IMG/VR virus record: IMGVR_UViG_3300037963_000465
Location: 1 to 34,184 of that record
DNA: 34,184 nt
Source of the DNA: a virus
Lineage: Duplodnaviria > Caudoviricetes
Strand: one strand, 5' to 3'
The position numbers and the translations under genes were made by a program. Shown in pieces: positions 8,836 through 29,500 of this stretch. The stretch's first letter is position 1. Every line of letters begins with the position of its first letter. The notes beneath the pieces are model-generated. The model was not told the DNA's origin, ran no database searches, and worked only from the letters and a program-made list of their open reading frames with translations.

Positions 8836-9047
8836 TGAATATGACATATACTTATGAAGATAGTAAGTATGATGTCGCTAAACTTAGCGAAGAAGGACAG
8901 CAGGTATTTAAAATACTTGCTGTTGCTCAACGCAAAGCTGATGAACTTAACATTGATACTACATTAGCACAAGCAGCAGTAGTAGCAATGCATACAAAAA
9001 TGCAAGAATACCTAAGTGATAAGGCTTTAATAAAAGAGGATGAATAA
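8835..9047 (+). CDS. Small helical hypothetical protein
   Basis: TAATG overlaps on both sides. Confidence 0.75.
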   Translation: MNMTYTYEDSKYDVAKLSEEGQQVFKILAVAQRKADELNIDTTLAQAAVVAMHTKMQEYLSDKALIKEDE

Positions 9048-10699
9048 TGTCTTTTGTAAAACTAAATCAACCCTGCCCTTCTTGTGGGGGCAGCGATCCA
9101 GTTGCCATAAACGACAATGGATCAGCAAAATGTTTTAGTTGTGGTACATTTTTTAAAGATTATTCTGAAGCTTCTGGTGGAAACGTGTCTGATTTCTCCA
9201 CCTACCAGAGAAATAATAATAATAATAATTCCACAGAAGCTTCCTTTAATGCACTAACGGATCGTGGTATATCTATTGAGACAGCAAAAAAATATGGAGT
9301 AAAATCAGTGTTGTCTTCAAATGGTTCTATTTATGAACACCATTATCCGATGTATATAAATAACGAAGTTGTTGCAACCAAGATAAGAAGACCTAATAAA
9401 GAATTCTACTGGCGTGGATCAAGTAAAGGAACTGGCTTATTCGGTCAACAACTTTGTCAAGATGGCGGTAAATACATTACAATAACAGAAGGAGAGTGCG
9501 ATGCTATGGCTGCCTATCAATTGATGGGTAGTCAATGGCCTGTAGTCTCAGTTAAAAACGGTGCTGAAGGTGCAGTACGTGATGTAAAAGATAATTTAGA
9601 ATTTCTTGAGTCATACGATACTGTTGTTATTAATTTTGATAATGATAAAGTTGGTAGGGAAGCAGCAAAAAAAGTAGCACGTTTATTAAAACCTGCTAAA
9701 GCTAAGATACTTCAACTGCCTGAACAATTTAAAGACGCTAATGAAATGCTAAAGCTTGGTCAACATAAAGCTTATGTAGCTTCTTGGTGGGCATCAAAAA
9801 TATATACTCCCTCTGGAGTATTAAATATAACAGATCAACGTGATAATTATAAAAAGCGAGAAAGAAAAGAATCTGTGCCTTATCCTTGGCAGGGTCTTAA
9901 TGATAAATTAGAAGGCTTACGACAAGGAGAATTAGTTACATTAACAGGTGGCACAGGTCTTGGTAAGTCTAGTGTGACAAGAGAACTAGAGCATTGGTTA
10001 GTTACTAATACTAAAGATAATATAGGTATCATTGCACTTGAAGAAGATTGGCGTAGAACTATAGATGGTATTTTATCTATTGAAGCTAACGCTAAGTTAC
10101 ATATTGATAGTGTTCGTTCATCATATACAGATGAACAAATAGATGATATGTTTAATATTTTATACGATGGAGAAAATAAGAATCGTGTTTGGGTTCATGC
10201 TCACTTTGGTATGAATGATCTCGATAGTATCTTTAGTAAACTACGTTTTATGATTGTCGGTTGTGGATGTAAATGGATAGTAGTAGACCACTTACATATG
10301 TTAGTATCTTGTTCTGTTGAAGGTGATGAACGTAGAACAATAGATAATATAATGCACAGACTAAGAACTCTTGTTGAAGAAACAGGTGCAGGTTTAATTT
10401 TAGTGTCTCACTTACGTAGGATAGATGGTAATCGTGGACATGAGAATGGTATTGCTACAGGGCTTTCGCATTTAAGAGGCTCACAATCTATAGCTCAACT
10501 ATCTGACTGTGTAATTTCTTTAGAGAGAAATCAACAATCAGAAGATCCTTTAGAATCTAGTACAACAAAGGTACGTATATTAAAATCTAGGTATACAGGT
10601 GATGTTGGTTTAGCTACCAGCTTGTATTATGATAATAATACTGGTAGACTACAAGAAGTAGATATAGTAGATGGTGATGAAATTCAGGTAGAGTTATGA
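9047..10699 (+). CDS. T7 gp4-like primase-helicase
   Basis: CPSC...CFSC zinc finger, TOPRIM ITEGECDA and FDND, Walker A GGTGLGKS, VVDHLH, LRGSQSIAQLSD. Confidence 0.97.
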   Translation: MSFVKLNQPCPSCGGSDPVAINDNGSAKCFSCGTFFKDYSEASGGNVSDFSTYQRNNNNNNSTEASFNALTDRGISIETAKKYGVKSVLSSNGSIYEHHYPMYINNEVVATKIRRPNKEFYWRGSSKGTGLFGQQLCQDGGKYITITEGECDAMAAYQLMGSQWPVVSVKNGAEGAVRDVKDNLEFLESYDTVVINFDNDKVGREAAKKVARLLKPAKAKILQLPEQFKDANEMLKLGQHKAYVASWWASKIYTPSGVLNITDQRDNYKKRERKESVPYPWQGLNDKLEGLRQGELVTLTGGTGLGKSSVTRELEHWLVTNTKDNIGIIALEEDWRRTIDGILSIEANAKLHIDSVRSSYTDEQIDDMFNILYDGENKNRVWVHAHFGMNDLDSIFSKLRFMIVGCGCKWIVVDHLHMLVSCSVEGDERRTIDNIMHRLRTLVEETGAGLILVSHLRRIDGNRGHENGIATGLSHLRGSQSIAQLSDCVISLERNQQSEDPLESSTTKVRILKSRYTGDVGLATSLYYDNNTGRLQEVDIVDGDEIQVEL

Positions 10700-12450
10700 A
10701 AACATTAGTATTTGATATAGAAACAAACGGTATTGATCCCGATAAAATTTGGTGTATAGCTACTGTTGATGCTGATACAGGTGATCTTAAATCTTATGGG
10801 CCAGATAAATTAGTAGATGGAATACAATCTTTAAAATCTGCTGATAAATTAGTTGGTCATAATATAATTGGATATGACATTCCAGTTATCAAAAAACTAA
10901 TGGATGTAGATTTATCTAAATATGCTAAGATTGTAGATACTTTAGTTTTGTCTAGGTTATTTAATCCTGTACGTGAAGGTGGACATAGTTTAGAAAGTTG
11001 GGGTTATCGTGTTGGTCTACATAAAATTGAATTTGATCAATATGATTATTATTCTGAAGAGATGTTATTGTATTGTGAAACTGATACTGTACTTAACAAT
11101 AAAATATTTGATAGATTAAAATTAGAAGCTTCAGGTTTTAGTTCTCACGCTGTTGGTTTAGAACATTCTGCATCTAAAATTATGGCTGATCAAAGATCAC
11201 ATGGTTTTTTATTAGATGTTAAAAAAGCTACTATGCTTGTTGCGGCACTTTCTGAAAGACTACATGAAGTTGAAACTTTAGTACATGAAACTTTTCTACC
11301 ACGAAAGGTTAAGACAGTTTTAAAAGCTACATTTACTAAGTCTGGTGCATTATCTAAGATGGCAGCTATTCAAGGTAGTATAAAGAAAAGTCGTTTAACT
11401 TCAGAAGAGTATGATGAAATTTCAATTAAACGTAAAATAACTAGAATAAATGAGGAGCCTTTTAATTTAGGTTCACGTAAACAAATAGGTGAATATCTAA
11501 TTGATTTTGGTTGGAAGCCTAGTAAGTTTACACCAACTGGTCAACCTATTGTTGATGAAGGTACATTAAGTAAAATAAAAGATATTCCTGAAGCAAAATT
11601 AATTGCAGAGTATTTACTATTACAAAAACGTATTGCTCAGTTAACTTCATGGATAAAAGAAGTCCATAATGATAATAGAGTACGTGGATTTGTAAACCCT
11701 AATGGTACTATTACTGGACGCATGACACATAACAGTCCTAACATGGCACAATGCCCTAGTGTAAGATCACCTTACGGTAAGGAGTGTCGAGAATGTTGGA
11801 CAGTTCCCGAAGGATATAAATTAGTGGGCATAGATGCTAGTGGTTTAGAATTACGTATGCTTGCACACTATATGAATGATGAGGCATATACAAATGAAAT
11901 ATTGCATGGAGACATACACACGGCTAATCAAAAGCTTGCAGGGCTTGAATCAAGAGATCAGAGTAAAACATTCATCTATGCACTCATCTACGGAGCCGGA
12001 AATGCAAAACTTGGTTCGGTGGTTGGAGGAAACAAAGAAGATGGCGAAAGACTTAGAAGACGTTTCCTTGATAATCTTCCATCATTTAAAAATCTTAGAG
12101 ACAGAGTTGCAAGAGCGTCTACAAAAGGATACCTCAAAGGATTAGATGGTCGTAAAATATATGTACGTTCTGAACATGCCGCACTTAATACTTTATTACA
12201 AGGTGCAGGTGCTATAGTAATGAAGGAAGCCATGCGTATACTTTACGAAACTATACAAGAAAAACAATTAGACGCACATTTTGTTTGCAATGTACATGAT
12301 GAATGGCAAATAGAAGTACGAGAAGATATGGCTGATGCTGTTGGTATAGCTGGTATTGAATCAATTAAAAATGCTGGTGTTGCTTTAAACTTACGGTGTC
12401 CATTAACAGGAGAATATAATGTCGGATCAAATTGGGCTGAGACTCACTAA
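10696..12450 (+). CDS. polA: Family A DNA polymerase with 3'-5' exonuclease, Tyr762 type
   Basis: FDIETNG, GHNIIGYD; motif A DASGLELRMLAHY, motif B KTFIYALIYG, motif C VHDEWQ. Confidence 0.97.
   Translation: MKTLVFDIETNGIDPDKIWCIATVDADTGDLKSYGPDKLVDGIQSLKSADKLVGHNIIGYDIPVIKKLMDVDLSKYAKIVDTLVLSRLFNPVREGGHSLESWGYRVGLHKIEFDQYDYYSEEMLLYCETDTVLNNKIFDRLKLEASGFSSHAVGLEHSASKIMADQRSHGFLLDVKKATMLVAALSERLHEVETLVHETFLPRKVKTVLKATFTKSGALSKMAAIQGSIKKSRLTSEEYDEISIKRKITRINEEPFNLGSRKQIGEYLIDFGWKPSKFTPTGQPIVDEGTLSKIKDIPEAKLIAEYLLLQKRIAQLTSWIKEVHNDNRVRGFVNPNGTITGRMTHNSPNMAQCPSVRSPYGKECRECWTVPEGYKLVGIDASGLELRMLAHYMNDEAYTNEILHGDIHTANQKLAGLESRDQSKTFIYALIYGAGNAKLGSVVGGNKEDGERLRRRFLDNLPSFKNLRDRVARASTKGYLKGLDGRKIYVRSEHAALNTLLQGAGAIVMKEAMRILYETIQEKQLDAHFVCNVHDEWQIEVREDMADAVGIAGIESIKNAGVALNLRCPLTGEYNVGSNWAETH
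11894..12145 (+). CDS. Putative overprinted gene, +1 frame inside polA (83 aa, helical)
   Basis: GAGG 9 nt before ATG; polA Leu codons switch to CTT/CTC across the ORF. Confidence 0.55.
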   Translation: MKYCMETYTRLIKSLQGLNQEIRVKHSSMHSSTEPEMQNLVRWLEETKKMAKDLEDVSLIIFHHLKILETELQERLQKDTSKD

Positions 12451-12760
12451 AGAGTTATCAGATAATAGAAAAGGAGACTTCGCAGAATTTTATGCAGTCA
12501 CTTGGTTGTGGGATCAAGGCTTTGATGTATTTAAAAATTGTGGTTGTGATGGGCCAATTGATATGATTGCATGGAATAAAGAAAACCATGATTTTATTCT
12601 TGTAGATGTTAAAACAATGTCACATGATCCTAGATATAAAGATAAAACTAACTGTTCTAAAGGCATATCAAGAACTCCATTCCAGAAAAAAATAGGCGTT
12701 CAATTTTTAAAGTTTGATCCTTACACTAGAAAATTGGAATTTACGGAGCATAGAACATGA
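12419..12760 (+). CDS. Small PD-(D/E)XK nuclease (Hjc/YraN-like)
   Basis: KGDFAE...GFDVF...PIDMIA...LVDVKT. Confidence 0.8.
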   Translation: MSDQIGLRLTKELSDNRKGDFAEFYAVTWLWDQGFDVFKNCGCDGPIDMIAWNKENHDFILVDVKTMSHDPRYKDKTNCSKGISRTPFQKKIGVQFLKFDPYTRKLEFTEHRT

Positions 12761-13617
12761 CTTGTCTTAATACATTAGTAGATGACATAAACAAAAGTTT
12801 GGAAGATTTATCAGACGGTACACCCCTTAATATTTCTGAAGAAGATTTAGATCTTACTTTGTCACGAATAAAAACTGCTATACTTGAATGGTCTGATCCA
12901 TCAGAACGTAACTCTAATTTTAGTTTACGCATGTCTAACATTGGTAAACCTGCAAGACAGTTATGGTTTGAAAAAAATAAACCAATAGAAAATACTAGAC
13001 ATAGTGCAGCAACCCAAATTAAATTTCTTTATGGACATATACTTGAAGAGATTGTGTTAATGCTTGTACGTGCAGCAGGTCATACAGTAACCGATGAACA
13101 AAAGGAAGTGGAGCTAAATGGAATTAAAGGACACATGGATTGTAAAATTGATGGAGAAGTTGTTGATATTAAAACTGCATCTAAGTTTGCTTTTGCTAAA
13201 TTTAAGAATGGAAATCTACATGATGATGATCCGTTTGGGTATATACCGCAGTTGGCTGCGTATGAGAAAGCAGAAGACACATGTAAAGGTGGATTCTTAG
13301 TTATAAATAAAGAAGGTGGTGATCTTTGTTTACATAAACCTGATGATTTATCTAAGCCTAATATAAATACAGTAGTATCTAATATAACAAAAGCTTTAGA
13401 TTCTAAAATAATGCCGCCTGTTTGTTATGATCCTATACCTGAAGGTAAAAAAGGAAACATGAAGATACACAGAAATTGTGTTTACTGTCCGTATAAATTT
13501 GAATGTTTTAAAGATTCTAATAACGGTAAAGGTTTAAGAGTTTTTAAATATGCAAATAGACTAGAGTATTTAACTAAAATTAATGTTGAACCTCGTGTTG
13601 AAGAGATATTAAAATGA
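12757..13617 (+). CDS. Cas4/RecB-like PD-(D/E)XK exonuclease
   Basis: LRMSNIG..RQLW, YGHILE, GHMD...VVDIKT, QLAAY, CVYCPYKFEC. Confidence 0.85.
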   Translation: MTCLNTLVDDINKSLEDLSDGTPLNISEEDLDLTLSRIKTAILEWSDPSERNSNFSLRMSNIGKPARQLWFEKNKPIENTRHSAATQIKFLYGHILEEIVLMLVRAAGHTVTDEQKEVELNGIKGHMDCKIDGEVVDIKTASKFAFAKFKNGNLHDDDPFGYIPQLAAYEKAEDTCKGGFLVINKEGGDLCLHKPDDLSKPNINTVVSNITKALDSKIMPPVCYDPIPEGKKGNMKIHRNCVYCPYKFECFKDSNNGKGLRVFKYANRLEYLTKINVEPRVEEILK

Positions 13618-13928
13618 ATCAAAAACAAGCAACAGCCATTAGACATAGAGCTAATGAACTTTTTGTAGAGTGGTTACAAAGTTTACTTAATAAAGAAGAA
13701 GCTTCTAAAGTATCTATAGATAACTATTGGAAGTTTCTTCCTAAACAATCTCATGTGTTTGCTAATAATCAAATATGGTTAGCAGCATATAGTCCAAGAT
13801 GGGTAGCAAAAAAAATAAAAAAAATGCTACATAAAAATCCAGATTTAAATTTAAATTTGATAACTTTAAAAGATCTTAAAAAAGAAGATAAACAATGGAA
13901 ACAGAAAGAGAACCCGTCCCATCTTTAG
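13614..13928 (+). CDS. Hypothetical protein
   Basis: ATGA overlap, 104 aa. Confidence 0.75.
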   Translation: MNQKQATAIRHRANELFVEWLQSLLNKEEASKVSIDNYWKFLPKQSHVFANNQIWLAAYSPRWVAKKIKKMLHKNPDLNLNLITLKDLKKEDKQWKQKENPSHL

Positions 13929-14053
13929 AAATTCTTATTGTTTTATGTGCTGGTTATATTACAGCAGGTGAACCTTATAATGAACAACTATTAATGGACA
14001 TAAGAGAAAAATTAGATGAATACTTTATTGAACAACAAGGTACATTACATTGA
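13895..14053 (+). CDS. 52-aa protein ending in TLH (not in track)
   Basis: METEREPVPSLEILIVLCAGYITAGEPYNEQLLMDIREKLDEYFIEQQGTLH; fills the gap and its stop overlaps the next TTG. Confidence 0.65.
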   Translation: METEREPVPSLEILIVLCAGYITAGEPYNEQLLMDIREKLDEYFIEQQGTLH

Positions 14054-14526
14054 AACTTAAAATTAAAAGTGGCAATAGACGTAAACGTGTACCAAGGCCA
14101 AAAGAAAAAAATTTAATTGTAGGTTATGATTCTAATTGGGAATATGAATTACATTCTGGTATCTTTAATCAATGGTCTTTTCATACAGAAAAAATTCCAT
14201 ACACTGTAGAACATACATATCAACCAGACTTTGTAAAACAAATAGGTGATAAAACTATTTTCTTAGAAGCTAAAGGAAGATTTTGGGATCATAATGAATA
14301 CAACAAGTATGTGTGGATAGCTAAAGCATTACCGGAAGATACTGAGCTAGTATTTTTATTTGCTAATCCAGAAGCTCCGATGCCTCAAGCAACAAGAAGA
14401 AAAGATGGGACTAAAAGATCCCATTGTGAATGGGCATCTTCAAAAGGTTTTCGATGGTTTAGTGAAGATAGTATACCTGATGATTGGATAGATGTAACAA
14501 AACGAGGAAGTTTTGATGACGAGTGA
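14050..14526 (+). CDS. T7 endonuclease I-like resolvase
   Basis: YDSNWE, YTVEHTYQPDF, FLEAKGRF, WASSKGFRW. Confidence 0.9.
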   Translation: MKLKIKSGNRRKRVPRPKEKNLIVGYDSNWEYELHSGIFNQWSFHTEKIPYTVEHTYQPDFVKQIGDKTIFLEAKGRFWDHNEYNKYVWIAKALPEDTELVFLFANPEAPMPQATRRKDGTKRSHCEWASSKGFRWFSEDSIPDDWIDVTKRGSFDDE

Positions 14527-14674
14527 TAGAAAGCAAGAACGTATTGATAAATTTAATCGACATAAAAAAAAGAAAGAGCATACAAAATTTGCTGAAGGTA
14601 AATTCAAGGCTCCTAAAAAACGTAACAAATATAAACTAAACATTAACGACATAAATGATATTGAGGAGCATTAA
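14516..14674 (+). CDS. 52-aa basic protein (not in track)
   Basis: GAGGA SD; MTSDRKQERIDKFNRHKKKK...; TAATG coupling to nrdJ. Confidence 0.7.
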   Translation: MTSDRKQERIDKFNRHKKKKEHTKFAEGKFKAPKKRNKYKLNINDINDIEEH

Positions 14675-16548
14675 TGAAAATTACACCTTACCAACAGTAC
14701 ATACATAAAAGTAGATACGCACGTTATCTGCCTGACTTAAAAAGACGAGAGACTTGGGGAGAAACAGTTAATCGTTATTTAAATTTTTGGGTTGAGCGTG
14801 GAGTTAAATTTACTGACGTAGAAAAAGTAACTTTATTTGATACTATTTTTTCTATGGAAGTTATGCCTAGCATGAGAGCTTTAATGACAGCAGGTGAAGC
14901 ATTAGACCGTGATAACGTAGCTGGTTTTAACTGTAGTTATATTACTATAGATAGTCCTAGAGCTTTTGACGAAATGATGTATATACTTATGTGTGGTACA
15001 GGTGTAGGTTTCAGTGTTGAACGCCAATATATTTCTAATTTACCAACCGTAGCAGAGGATTTCCATGAGACTGAAACCGTTATTCACATCGCAGATAGTA
15101 AAATTGGATGGGCGAAATCGTATAGGGAACTGGTATCGCTTTTGTATTCAGGCCAATTACCACGATGGGACGCTAGTAGAATTAGACCTTCGGGTTCCCC
15201 ACTTAAAACTTTCGGAGGTAGAGCAAGTGGCCCAGAGCCTCTTATTGACCTCTTCAACTTCACAGTTAACATCTTTAAAGGAGCGTCTGGAAGAAAACTT
15301 ACATCCCTTGAATGCCACGATCTTTGCTGTAAAATTGCACAGATAGTTGTAGTAGGTGGTGTACGTAGATCAGCTTTAATATCTTTAAGTAATCTTACGG
15401 ACGATAGAATACGTAGAGCCAAGCATGGTCAATGGTGGGTTGATGAACCTCAACGTGCTTTGTCTAACAACTCAGCATGTTATACTGAGAAACCAGACTT
15501 TGAAGCTTTCTTAAATGAATGGAGTAGTTTATATGAATCAAGATCAGGAGAACGTGGAATCTTTAGTCGTGTCGCAAGTCAAAAACAAGCTGCAAGAAAT
15601 GGCAGAAGAGATAGCGAATACGATTTTGGAACCAACCCTTGCAGCGAAATTATACTTAGACCAAACCAATTTTGCAACCTGTCAGAAGTGGTTGTCAGAC
15701 CAGACGATACAGTTGAAGATCTTAAACGGAAAGTACGAAATGCAACTATCCTTGGAACTCTCCAAGCTACCCTCACAGACTTCAGATACCTTAGAAGAAT
15801 CTGGGAGAAGAACACATCTGAGGAAGCACTTTTAGGTGTATCGTTAACAGGTATATTAGATAACCCTTTAATGACTTTAAAAAATAAAAACTTACCTACG
15901 GTGTTAGAATGGCTACGTAATGAAGCTATCAAGACTAACAAAGAATGGGCAGATAAATTAAATATTAATCAATCAACTGCTATTACTTGTGTTAAACCTA
16001 GTGGTACAGTATCACAGTTAGTAGATAGTGCTAGTGGAATACACGGAAGATATGCCCCGCATTATATTAGAAGAGTACGTGCCGATTCTCGTGATCCCCT
16101 TTGTACGGTGCTTGAAAATGCTGGTGTGCCATCTGAAATAGATGTTACCTCCCCCACTACTAAAGTCTTTAGCTTTCCACAACAGGCTCCTAAGAAGGCT
16201 GTGTTCGCTTCTGAGCAAACTGGAATGGAACAGTTAGAACTATGGAAAATTTATCAGGAGTATTGGTGTGAACATAAACCTAGTATTACAGTTTATTATC
16301 GGGATGATGAGTACCTTGCTATTGGCGATTGGATTTATAATAATTTTGATTCTGTATCTGGTATTTCATTTCTTCCCTATAGTGATCATACATATGAGCA
16401 AGCTCCGTATGAACAGATTACAAAAGAAGAATATGATAAACAGATAAAAGATTTCCCAACAAAATTTAATTGGGACATTGAAGAAGATACGGATGCAACA
16501 GAAGGTTCACAGACATTAGCCTGTGTAGGGACTTCATGTGAAATATAA
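14674..16548 (+). CDS. nrdJ: Class II adenosylcobalamin-dependent ribonucleotide reductase (monomeric RTPR type)
   Basis: FNCS, MCGTGVG, GGVRRSA, TNPCSEI, CNLSE, TCVKPSGTVS, C-terminal CVGTSCEI; no beta subunit gene. Confidence 0.95.
   Translation: MKITPYQQYIHKSRYARYLPDLKRRETWGETVNRYLNFWVERGVKFTDVEKVTLFDTIFSMEVMPSMRALMTAGEALDRDNVAGFNCSYITIDSPRAFDEMMYILMCGTGVGFSVERQYISNLPTVAEDFHETETVIHIADSKIGWAKSYRELVSLLYSGQLPRWDASRIRPSGSPLKTFGGRASGPEPLIDLFNFTVNIFKGASGRKLTSLECHDLCCKIAQIVVVGGVRRSALISLSNLTDDRIRRAKHGQWWVDEPQRALSNNSACYTEKPDFEAFLNEWSSLYESRSGERGIFSRVASQKQAARNGRRDSEYDFGTNPCSEIILRPNQFCNLSEVVVRPDDTVEDLKRKVRNATILGTLQATLTDFRYLRRIWEKNTSEEALLGVSLTGILDNPLMTLKNKNLPTVLEWLRNEAIKTNKEWADKLNINQSTAITCVKPSGTVSQLVDSASGIHGRYAPHYIRRVRADSRDPLCTVLENAGVPSEIDVTSPTTKVFSFPQQAPKKAVFASEQTGMEQLELWKIYQEYWCEHKPSITVYYRDDEYLAIGDWIYNNFDSVSGISFLPYSDHTYEQAPYEQITKEEYDKQIKDFPTKFNWDIEEDTDATEGSQTLACVGTSCEI
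15065..15346 (+). CDS. Putative overprinted gene, +1 frame inside nrdJ (93 aa)
   Basis: GAGGA 5 nt before ATG; local codon shift. Confidence 0.5.
   Translation: MRLKPLFTSQIVKLDGRNRIGNWYRFCIQANYHDGTLVELDLRVPHLKLSEVEQVAQSLLLTSSTSQLTSLKERLEENLHPLNATIFAVKLHR
15533..15835 (+). CDS. Putative overprinted gene, +1 frame inside nrdJ (100 aa)
   Basis: GGAG 8 nt before ATG; all 8 nrdJ Leu codons inside are CTN and the next seven are TTA. Confidence 0.55.
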   Translation: MNQDQENVESLVVSQVKNKLQEMAEEIANTILEPTLAAKLYLDQTNFATCQKWLSDQTIQLKILNGKYEMQLSLELSKLPSQTSDTLEESGRRTHLRKHF

Positions 16549-26586: not shown

Positions 26587-29500
26587 CTAAGTTACATTTA
26601 CTACAGTTTGAGTTTGGTCTAAACCAACTGCTGTTTTAATTGCTGAAATCATACTACCAATATGATTACTTTTACCTTTTTCTCCTGCTGCTGCTTCATT
26701 ACCAATTGCTGCAATGTACAACTGTGTTTGTCTTGTTTCATCGTTTTCATAAGACTGTCTAATATAAGCAGCTTCATCACGCAACTGTTGATACATAAAA
26801 GCTTGTTCTGATGCTGACATTGCAAAAGCATTTTGAACATTAATCCTATTAGATTCATTTTGTGCAGCCGTATCTGCTAATGATGAATTACGTAAATAAT
26901 TTAAATACGCTTGTTCAATTTGTACTGCATTTTGCATGTTAAATTGATAACGTTGATCTTCACGTTGTCGATTAAATATATCAACTTGTTTAGCCATTTC
27001 TGCATTTGTTACAGCAACTTGTATTTCTTGTCCTGCAACCCTTGCATCTTGTTGTTCAGTTAATTGCTCATTAAATTGTTTCATTTGATTTATTGACTGT
27101 GCATTAAATTGACTTGTTTGTTGAGCTAGTTGTGTCATAAACTGATTAATTTGATTTTCACTGGTAGCATTAAATTGTCGTGCTGCATTTTGTGCAGCAA
27201 CATCAGAAAGTAATACTTGTTGTTGTTGTTGACCTGTAAGCATTGCAGCTTGTTGATCATTATTTAAATTTGCCATATCCATTTGTAAAAAAGCCGCAGC
27301 ATTTTGTGCTTGTAGTTTTGTATTACCAGTTAACGTAGCCACATCTAAACTTGCCATTGCTGTAGCATTTTGCATTGTTGCTTGTTGTTCAGCACTAAAA
27401 TCTGCAAGTGTAGCAGACTGCATAAATTTACTATTTGCTAATTCTACTTGTTGTTCCACAGTAAACTTAGTTAAATCTATATTTGCAACTGTAGCAGCAT
27501 TTTTTACGGCTCTTTGTTGATCTACATTTAATTGCGCTAAGTTCATTTGTTGTGCAATTTGAGCAGATACCGTATTTACTTGCATTGTTTTATTAAGGTT
27601 TGCAAGTTCTGTTTGTTGTGCAACATTAAGATTATCTGCACTAGCTTGATTTAATGCTGTTAAGTTTGCTAATCGCATTTGTTGTTCATTAGAAAGATTA
27701 GCTACTTCCATTTGTTGTTTAAAACCAGCGTTCTTAGCTAAGAAATCCGCTGCAACCTGCATCTCAGTTAAACGTCTTTGGTTTTCTGCCGTAACATTTT
27801 CACGTTCTGTAGTACTTTGTAATTGTAATTCAGCAAGCTCTACTTGTTGTTCATTACCTAGTTCTTGTGCATTAATAGCTTGTTGATTCTGAGCATTAAG
27901 TGTAGCAGTTTGTTGTTGGTTTTGAAGATTTTGAAGTCTTGCTACTTGTTCTCTTTCAGCAGAAGTTAATAATGCTTGTTGACTAAATTGACTTTGAAGC
28001 GTTGCCATGTTTTGTGCAAACTGTGCAGTCTGAGAAGATGCTGTTTGCCTATTAGAAAGATTAGCCATGCGTATTTGCATATCAGCAGTTGTCTGTGCAA
28101 GATTAGCTTGTTGCTGATTAGAAAGATTTTGTGCTGCTCTTGCTTGTAATGCTTGTGCATTAGATTGAGCAATTGGCATAGCACTTTGTATAATAGCATT
28201 AAAAAGAGAATCCCTTCCAACACTTGAAACATTTAACCCACGTTGCGCTAAATTGTTTTCAACAAGCTCTACAGCTGGTCTAGCCCATATAGGTACTTCT
28301 CCAGTATCCATACCAGCAAGAAGATTTTCCATTTGAGAAGATACTAAAGCTTCAGTCGGTAATGCTGCTATAGCTGCTTGTACCTCTACTGGTTGTGTAT
28401 CTACCATTTCTTCAACAACAACAGGATCTTCAACAATTATAGATGTTAAATTTTCTGGTATGTTTCCAACTTGAGCAAGCATTTCTGCTGCTGCACCTTT
28501 AGCTGCTTCACCTGTAAAATTTCTAGCTTGTGCTGCATCATAACCAACAGCACTTATTATCTGTGCTGCTTGTCCTTCATCAGCTATTCCAGTTAATGCT
28601 TGTCGTTGTTGTCTTTCTGCATTAGGAGTAGCAGCTAATTCAATAGTTGCTCCAGTAACTTTATCAATCATAGCATTAGTTGAAAGATCAAAATCTACTG
28701 TTTGTGCTAGTGCTGCTTTTTCATCAAGATTTTTTCTAGTAGCTGCAATAGCTTCTTGTGTTAAACCTTGATTTTGAATAGCAGATTGAATTGCACCTTC
28801 ACTTAATTCACCTTTAGCTGCTGAAATTGCTAATGGAGAATTAGCCTGTGCAGCATCTATTTTTGCTACACCCATCCTTCTCGCTTGTGCCTGAGAAACA
28901 CCAGTAATTCTTTGTGCCCTTTGACCGATATTTGGTGTAGCTTGTGGAGCAGTTATACGATCACTATCTGTTAAATAATTACCACTTATCCAATTTATAG
29001 CTTGACCTCTAGGATCACCACGTAATCCATATTGATCTCCAATAGATTCTCTATCAACTTTTTCTGCAACCATTGTTGGGGCTGTTGTATATTCAGGTGT
29101 TTGAATAGGCTGTCTTGGCCCAAAACCTGTATCACCAGTAATAACTGTTTGATTTTGTTTTGCGTCAGCATTTAGTGCTTCAGCTTCAGCCATTAAACGA
29201 GGGAACCATTCCATTTGAGCATCAGTCGCAGCTTTCCAATTATAATTATTATATTTTAATTCTGGATTACCTGTTGTTGGATTATATCGTCCTTGGACAA
29301 CCATATCCTTTCCTTCAGCTGTTGTATATGCTTTTCTAAATACTAAAACATTTTGTGTTGTAGTTGCAGTAAGTGTAGGTTGTGGTTTAGTCATATTAAA
29401 AAATCTTGATTGTCGTTGTGATCTTTCTGTAGTTATATCAGGATCAGTTTCTTCATCAATTTGATTTTCAGGAACCTCATCAAATGTTTCTTCTTCTTCT

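Follow-up and report, generated by a model that had tools for sequence, protein, structure and literature searches.

The window analysed here is a whole viral assembly of 34,184 nt (IMGVR_UViG_3300037963_000465, Caudoviricetes), in which three small open reading frames (ORFs), here called A, B and C, lie in the +1 frame inside the replication enzyme genes polA and nrdJ. Judged from comparative sequence analysis, they are very likely unannotated small-protein genes. The whole reading, that they are +1 genes held by selection and translated, and likely dispensable accessory factors of host takeover, is given a probability of about 0.85; taken singly, A and B are almost certainly real translated genes, and C very probably is. 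A first-pass annotation of this DNA had proposed that the phage hides small proteins under conserved enzyme motifs, and homologous frames, conserved ATGs and synonymous constraint support this proposal. The enclosing genes, the ORFs and their putative Shine–Dalgarno (SD) sites are as follows.

10696–12450, plus strand: polA, family A DNA polymerase, 584 aa, enclosing ORF A
11880–11893, plus strand: SD of ORF A, GAGG (a Glu GAG codon plus G)
11894–12145, plus strand: ORF A, 83 aa, +1 frame over polA codons 400–482, including motif B (KTFIYALIYG at 11965)
14674–16548, plus strand: nrdJ, B12-dependent (RTPR-type) ribonucleotide reductase (RNR), 624 aa, enclosing ORFs B and C
15052–15064, plus strand: SD of ORF B, GAGG (a Glu GAG codon plus G)
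15065–15346, plus strand: ORF B, 93 aa, +1 frame over nrdJ codons 131–223
15519–15532, plus strand: SD-like site of ORF C, TGGAG (Trp TGG plus Ser AGT), with weaker comparative support
15533–15835, plus strand: ORF C, 100 aa, +1 frame over nrdJ codons 287–386, including the NPCSE motif (15634)

Motif B of polA and the NPCSE motif of nrdJ are catalytic, and the Pfam RNR-II insertion domain (nrdJ 135–195) underlies ORF B. The three ATG-started +1 ORFs that the first-pass annotation had described are all present, and a +1 stop lies 5–7 codons ahead of each ATG (11873, 15050, 15512). Its claim that each SD rests on a synonymous choice holds for A and B, where Glu is written as GAG, and needs qualifying for C, whose site is mostly the Trp codon TGG. 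The SD duplex energies at the starts of A, B and C are −5.7, −5.8 and −5.9 kcal/mol, and those of ordinary window genes range from −2.9 to −8.5 kcal/mol; an extra in-frame ATG upstream in A (11876) and C (15515) is without SD (duplex +2.2 and −0.2 kcal/mol). Under a null that keeps the enclosing protein and the gene's own codon use, the chance of a stop-free frame was 0/20000 for A, 0.00015 for B and 0.00065 for C, for intervals picked after the fact; a window-wide permutation test avoids that choice. In this test, which is the synonymous shuffle of ORF length plus SD suggested earlier as a check, three SD–ATG nested ORFs of at least 80 aa were found in 18 window genes, against a mean of 0.02 expected from 500 synonymous permutations (490 gave none and 10 gave one).

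The codon use of the enclosing genes shifts inside the ORFs, as had been noticed at first pass. Leu is written as TTA in 33 of 48 cases in polA outside A and in 1 of 11 inside, while the nrdJ values are 15 of 25 outside, 1 of 10 in B and 0 of 8 in C. The GGT:GGA counts are 24:8 outside A and 1:7 inside it, and 11:5 outside, 2:4 in B and 0:4 in C for nrdJ. A third position of the enclosing gene doubles as a second position in the +1 frame, where the bases A and C give polar residues and T, the AT-rich default, would give hydrophobic ones or set up stops; the codon shift may therefore be read as the footprint of a second protein. The polarity claimed for the products was likewise recovered, since the grand average of hydropathy of A, B and C lies below that of stop-free shuffles, with z of −5.6, −2.6 and −2.1. 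Contigs from two other runs are identical to the window, X4 and X6 across the whole of A and X4 also across most of B and C, and the nested ORFs are therefore not an assembly error.

The frames are widely shared by relatives. With the enclosing proteins as queries, 160 loci were found, from which 105 polA and 102 nrdJ homologs were taken and aligned by codon with the window. The +1 frame is open across a 75-codon core in 86 of 106 sequences for A, 95 of 103 for B and 71 of 103 for C (window included). Among representatives below 90% nucleotide identity, it is open in 52 of 65, 39 of 45 and 32 of 45, where 1.38, 0.35 and 0.69 would be expected from each sequence's own codon use. The ATG stands in the identical column in 51 of 52 (A), 39 of 39 (B) and 31 of 32 (C) open representatives, and the enclosing gene has a NAT codon at the start column in the same numbers of them (background about 0.5). 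GAG occupies the SD column in 45 of 52 (A) and 35 of 39 (B) open representatives, against a background of 0.42. In most closed lineages the number of +1 stops is near expectation, and the distribution is bimodal, so the state of a frame appears to be either on or off. The scattering of +1 stops through homologs that had been named as evidence against nested genes was not seen; sequences are either fully open with a conserved ATG or have roughly the expected stops.

The SD motif is tied to the open state for A (51 of 52 open vs. 1 of 13 closed representatives, Fisher p 4e-11) and for B (33 of 39 vs. 1 of 6, p 0.002), with no significant tie for C (13 of 32 vs. 2 of 13, p = 0.16), in tests that ignore shared ancestry. 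The evidence for an SD of C beyond the closest clade is weak. Several A sequences scored as closed (L009, L010, L012, L016 and L160) have moved the start four codons downstream behind a new strong SD (AGGAG or GGAGG), and these are therefore not losses. The C-termini vary in length, giving products of 80–107 aa for A and 90–132 aa for B.

Selection on the +1 proteins was read from fourfold-site divergence inside and outside each ORF in disjoint close pairs (42, 45 and 34 open pairs and 6, 3 and 14 closed pairs for A, B and C). In open lineages the inside-to-outside ratio is 0.42 for A (lower in 41 of 42 pairs), 0.51 for B (37 of 45) and 0.39 for C (31 of 34), while closed lineages give 1.00, 0.98 and 0.91. 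The sliding synonymous dip coincides with the ORF limits. Sites that are silent in the enclosing gene and change the +1 protein are slowed inside compared with outside (A 0.195 vs. 0.428, B 0.250 vs. 0.415, C 0.243 vs. 0.436), and in the main set no slowing is seen at doubly silent sites (A 0.72 vs. 0.70, B 0.80 vs. 0.69, C 0.62 vs. 0.72). This combination argues for selection on the +1 protein and not on the nucleotides. Synonymous constraint and depletion of +1 stops in related polA and nrdJ, which the first-pass annotation had put forward as checks, are thus both found in open lineages. Moreover, relatives that lost a frame return to TTA and GGT codons: L081 and L005 (86–87% NrdJ identity), which keep B and lack C, have regained GGT and TTA over C only, with GGT:GGA of 3:0 and 4:0 over the C interval vs. 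0:4 in the window.

The distribution of the frames is patchy. A second polA set was seeded with the polymerase of Pelagibacter phage HTVC115P and not with the hidden protein, and in it A is open with its ATG in 76 of 76 sequences (window included), 73 of them with the SD, at a synonymous ratio of 0.47 (lower in 33 of 35 pairs). The cultured SAR11 phages HTVC115P, HTVC103P and HTVC104P carry A, unannotated, behind TAAGGAG or TAAGGAA (MN698247.1:11197-11520, MN698242.1:13668-13967 and MN698243.1:14169-14468). On a polymerase tree built without the overlap, carriers of A are interleaved with several clades lacking it, and A is closed in CRP-804, CRP-13 and Slicky01. In distant nrdJ sets, B is open with its ATG in 36 of 159 and C in 34 of 164 sequences, and the B interval is closed in 115 of 159; the carriers fall in one branch of a quick tree, which unites the window's clade with one around MW202796.1 (ct2os315), a record from a freshwater spring, and both starts are absent from HMO-2011, ICBM2 and CRP phages. 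Among 59 loci, whose combinations were placed on a quick nrdJ tree, 36 carry A, B and C, 9 B and C, 5 A and B, 5 B, 3 A, and 1 none. These combinations point to independent gain and loss of the frames, which also come and go while the enclosing enzyme stays intact.

Peptide-pattern scans of the sequence collection gave an estimated 2800 or so stretches matching A and about 1100 matching B, most, not all, of them confirmed by tblastn. The databases returned 35 and 100 matches for B, 125 for A, and 51 for C. The +1 constraints imposed by the enclosing gene are all kept in 120 of 120 A matches listed, at a level of at least 0.9 in 48 of 51 for C, and in 107 of 129 for B, the lowest-scoring B and C rows being mostly frameshift hybrids. 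In loci found with the hidden proteins, the enclosing frame is intact in 75 of 75 scored (2 at contig edges) and in 79 of 79; the open state of these loci follows from the query and was excluded from support. No free-standing homolog of A, B or C was found, in searches that for A and C were limited to similar lengths; two scans of bacterial and archaeal genomes gave no match, nor did tblastn of A and B against cultured phages. The tblastn matches of C in CRP-345 and two rhizobiophages are nrdJ shadows without ATG, and a Cylindrospermopsis phage match to C is an unrelated gene. The open +1 frames of phiM6, RHph_N3_19 and their kin lack the ATG, have P0 of 0.07–0.16 and are without constraint (1.22, 3 pairs), and they were not counted. 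Because the enzymes have a far wider distribution than the nested frames and the searches yielded no free-standing homolog, the genes probably arose de novo by overprinting of polA and nrdJ; a range narrower than that of the enclosing gene is treated as an accepted sign of a de novo frame in the available part of PMC8227390.

The alternative that survives best accepts the genes as real and takes their products to be accessory subunits or regulators of the overlapped enzymes, A of the polymerase or replisome, and B and C of NrdJ, since an overlap would tie a gene to its partner in expression and inheritance. The presence of A in all HTVC103P-type polymerases sampled fits this view, as do the common strand and gene cluster, and C was never open without B in the 59 loci. 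However, seven distant-set sequences have C with its ATG and without B, so that a dependence of C on B was rejected, and several clades without the frames keep intact polA and nrdJ. Persistence of intact enzymes in such clades favours dispensable host-directed factors over enzyme partners, and the partner reading is considered unlikely overall.

The predicted products bear on a second alternative, in which nested translation matters in cis, through ribosome traffic, mRNA protection or tuning of enzyme output, with the peptides as by-products. ORF B is modelled as a beta-beta-beta-alpha-alpha-beta domain with a predicted local distance difference test score (pLDDT) of 83.5 (82–83.5 over five models). 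Its best fold match (3o1k_A, Z 6.0, rmsd 3.1, 74 aligned) is tied with unrelated folds, a FolB-like T-fold and SPFH having been considered, and Foldseek gave no match for B at E ≤ 0.001. The C model combines a long amphipathic helix and a beta-hairpin, and its best fold-search Z of 5.0 was obtained on a poor model. A is predicted to be helical, and its alignment can be read as having hydrophobic residues at heptad positions over residues 37–72. Helical periodicity exceeds the null only in open lineages (mean z 1.55 vs. 0.03 for A and 2.41 vs. −0.32 for C). Nothing convincing was found for A, B or C in Pfam, PHROGs, NCBIfam, PADLOC or PDB sequence profiles, the best family matches being PbeC for A (E = 0.0037) and DUF3562 for one C homolog (E = 0.0047); the ESM Atlas gave no usable match for B and scores of at most 0.80 for A, and no signal peptide, lipobox or nuclease motif was detected in the three products. 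A role in cis is compatible with the conserved SD–ATG sites, the open frames and the variable C-termini, but throughout each ORF selection acts on +1 amino acids and not just on stops, and B has a confidently predicted globular model, which makes such a role improbable.

A third alternative, that constraint on RNA structure or DNA sites, or recombinant patches of higher GC, left open frames as a by-product, appears very improbable. It could draw on the mosaic nature of nrdJ, as L081 and L005 match the window at 0.96–0.97 before codon 298 but not over codons 301–386, where the best match they have elsewhere is 0.78. Their C segment looks like a recombinant or fast-diverged patch, which suggests that loss of C may occur by allele replacement. 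Another point in its favour is a synonymous dip of 0.10–0.17 at window ~16110–16250 (nrdJ codons 481–525), where no conserved +1 or +2 ORF is found and a regulatory DNA or RNA element is possible. Against it, folding z-scores over the ORFs are 0.32, 2.04 and −1.03 with no Rfam match, doubly silent sites are free in the main set, constraint is gone where the frame is closed, starts have been relocated with new SDs, and the signal holds over enclosing-gene GC of 0.33–0.51. Patches from a high-GC donor, the other outcome named at first pass as contradicting the nested genes, are not supported either, because segments B and C of the window have the same nearest relatives as their flanks, the bounds of the dip are the ORF limits, and lineages without the ORFs lack the codon shift. 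Programmed +1 frameshifting to truncated enzyme fusions is the least credible alternative: a few database proteins are NrdJ-to-+1 hybrids (P0031, P0033, P0035, P0218, P0274), but they switch frame at differing places, each of the three for which cluster data exist is alone in its cluster, as expected of sequencing errors, and a +1 stop precedes each ATG while the conserved elements are the ATG and the SD.

The favoured reading is that of selected, very likely translated +1 genes. Ribosomes would initiate at SD–ATG sites written with synonymous codons, GAG-G giving the SD and NAT-G the ATG, and the mRNA of the replication module would be translated internally into three soluble small proteins during DNA replication. 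Likely roles are those of a coiled-coil adaptor for A, a compact alpha/beta binding domain for B and a helical binder for C. If the genes are real, a host-directed accessory role has about even odds, as suggested by size, timing, solubility and patchy distribution; partnership with the phage's own replication enzymes is clearly less probable, and some other role is about on a par with partnership.

Several points weigh against the full interpretation. The case for accessory function consists of the four properties just named and no others, and the universal presence of A in the HTVC103P-type sample fits a near-essential role equally well. The relatives share ancestry, so open-frame counts are non-independent events, and the closed-lineage controls for A and B are small (6 and 3 pairs). 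Doubly silent sites are few (43–102), and in the second A set they are also lower inside (14/42 = 0.32 vs. 0.46), where the test is weaker. The position-1 to position-2 ratio of amino-acid changes in the enclosing proteins has no clear shift for A or C. In distant nrdJ the constraint is mild (B 0.83 and C 0.81, vs. 1.17 and 1.12); 27 of 164 sequences there have the C interval open with neither ATG nor constraint (1.07), which suggests that it is often open by chance in higher-GC phages. In addition, the C model is of low confidence (59.5), and B failed the test for beta-periodicity (mean z −0.43).

Genes of this kind are already known from phage T7, where +1 genes are annotated within the genes for primase-helicase, terminase and spanin. 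In its RefSeq record (NC_001604), gene 4 (primase-helicase) contains genes 4.1 and 4.2, and gene 19 (terminase) contains 19.2 and 19.3; by coordinate arithmetic all four are +1 (offsets 70, 1423, 646 and 1183), and 4.2 extends past the end of gene 4. Like A, B and C, these are small hypothetical same-strand genes inside core enzyme genes of a podophage. Unlike A, B and C, they occupy other enclosing genes, and T7 gene 5 has neither an annotated nested gene nor an ATG in the A column; no PHROG match links A, B or C to the T7 nested proteins. In the aligned T7 gene 5 (L180), no stop interrupts the +1 frame for about 80 aligned codons following motif A, and an ATG falls within motif B, a pattern that may be chance at the GC of T7. 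Fully nested out-of-frame genes with their own start also include the embedded o-spanin 18.7 in 18.5 of T7, and in phage lambda Rz1 is embedded in Rz. An Rz1-like identity was rejected for A, B and C, which are polar products encoded within enzyme genes and lack both a hydrophobic signal at the N-terminus and a conserved lipidation Cys; the single spanin match is weak and partial (E = 0.034, one A sequence). Out-of-frame homing endonucleases in phage inteins or inserts share the feature of a second, shifted-frame gene inside a polymerase gene, and this was rejected as well, because the enclosing proteins are colinear with relatives lacking the ORFs and no HNH, GIY-YIG or LAGLIDADG match was found in Pfam, PHROG or NCBIfam.

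For viral overprints in general, the available part of PMC8227390 describes de novo genes of restricted distribution, in the +1 frame, with reduced synonymous variation and a presumed accessory role, and A, B and C resemble them in range, frame and synonymous change. The cases in that part are mostly from RNA and small DNA viruses and biased to disorder, whereas here catalytic motifs of a dsDNA phage are overprinted and B is predicted to be globular. The features of an overprinted gene found here are frames open beyond chance, a conserved ATG for all three, an SD tied to the open state for A and B, synonymous constraint with purifying selection (weaker in distant nrdJ), and a range narrower than that of the enclosing gene. 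The literature searched, with subscription papers mostly outside its range, contained no account of the A, B or C families and none of an overprint affecting polA motif B or the core of nrdJ; in the main text of the HTVC103P preprint (bioRxiv 10.1101/2019.12.14.876532), 'overlap' and 'proteom' have 0 occurrences.

All sampled polymerases of the HTVC103P type harbour ORF A as an unannotated gene candidate, and this phage group is reported to rank among the five most abundant in most marine viromes (bioRxiv 10.1101/2019.12.14.876532). The presence of ORF A in three cultured SAR11 phages makes it directly testable. The set would combine de novo genes whose ancestral frame is known, sister clades that act as natural knock-outs, and a single globular fold predicted with confidence, so that the origin of folded proteins from scratch becomes tractable. 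As polA and nrdJ serve as phage marker genes, overlaps hidden in their most conserved parts would distort the synonymous rates and dN/dS estimated there. More tentatively, marine phages might use conserved enzyme motifs as a nursery of a hidden, fast-turning accessory genome. If so, folded proteins would arise de novo over catalytic cores and be gained, lost and re-started clade by clade, their products, including a globular alpha/beta domain without known relative, would act against the host or its defences, and the overlap could block inteins and introns from conserved sites.

As for the genomic context, the replication enzymes of this marine podophage, which also include endonuclease I, lie on the plus strand and face virion genes on the minus strand. 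The closest cultured relatives of the polymerase are HTVC115P, HTVC103P and HTVC104P (51–52% aa), and NrdJ is closest to that of roseophages (~61%); the gene order is similar to that of HTVC103P-type phages, and HTVC115P has a class I RNR in place of nrdJ. An Hjc-like nuclease gene (12419–12760, plus strand) overlaps the 3' end of polA and is possibly a free-standing homing nuclease. Further features of the plus-strand cluster are as follows.

9047–10699, plus strand: primase-helicase
12757–13617, plus strand: Cas4-like exonuclease gene, enclosing a probable fourth +1 ORF
13118–13300, plus strand: probable fourth +1 ORF, 60 aa, GGAG SD, weaker (P0 0.008)

The first-pass annotation had overlooked the probable fourth frame. 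Its start is common to 5 of 114 homologs, and 24 start 8 codons earlier (SD in 21 of 24); the synonymous ratios are 0.35 (2 pairs) and 0.68 (10 pairs) vs. 1.24 and 1.27 in non-carriers. In nrdJ, a GTG-started hydrophobic +1 ORF of 59 aa lies behind AGGAG at 16268–16447 (plus strand); it is open in 23 of 89 homologs, including the closest (P0 0.09), and the SD motif is present in most non-carriers too. Over nrdJ codons 405–480, relatives (L005, L074, L134) have a +1 ORF of 64–76 aa that is closed in the window, with an SD in 26 of 30 and 12 of 15 carriers and little or no synonymous constraint (1.08, 0.75). The CRP-118 nrdJ (L175) is annotated as two pieces with a 400-bp gap and a two-part match, possibly an intron or insertion. 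At primase codon 106 (L111, L100, L125), a 153-aa +1 ORF without SD motif is present in 18 of 66 scored homologs and closed in the window (synonymous ratio 0.58 vs. 1.13). At polA codon 190, 14 relatives in the L059/L042/L073 clade have a +1 ORF of 93–97 aa, and a 60-aa SD–ATG +1 ORF lies at 26831 (minus strand) in the gene of a 1251-aa virion protein of the window.

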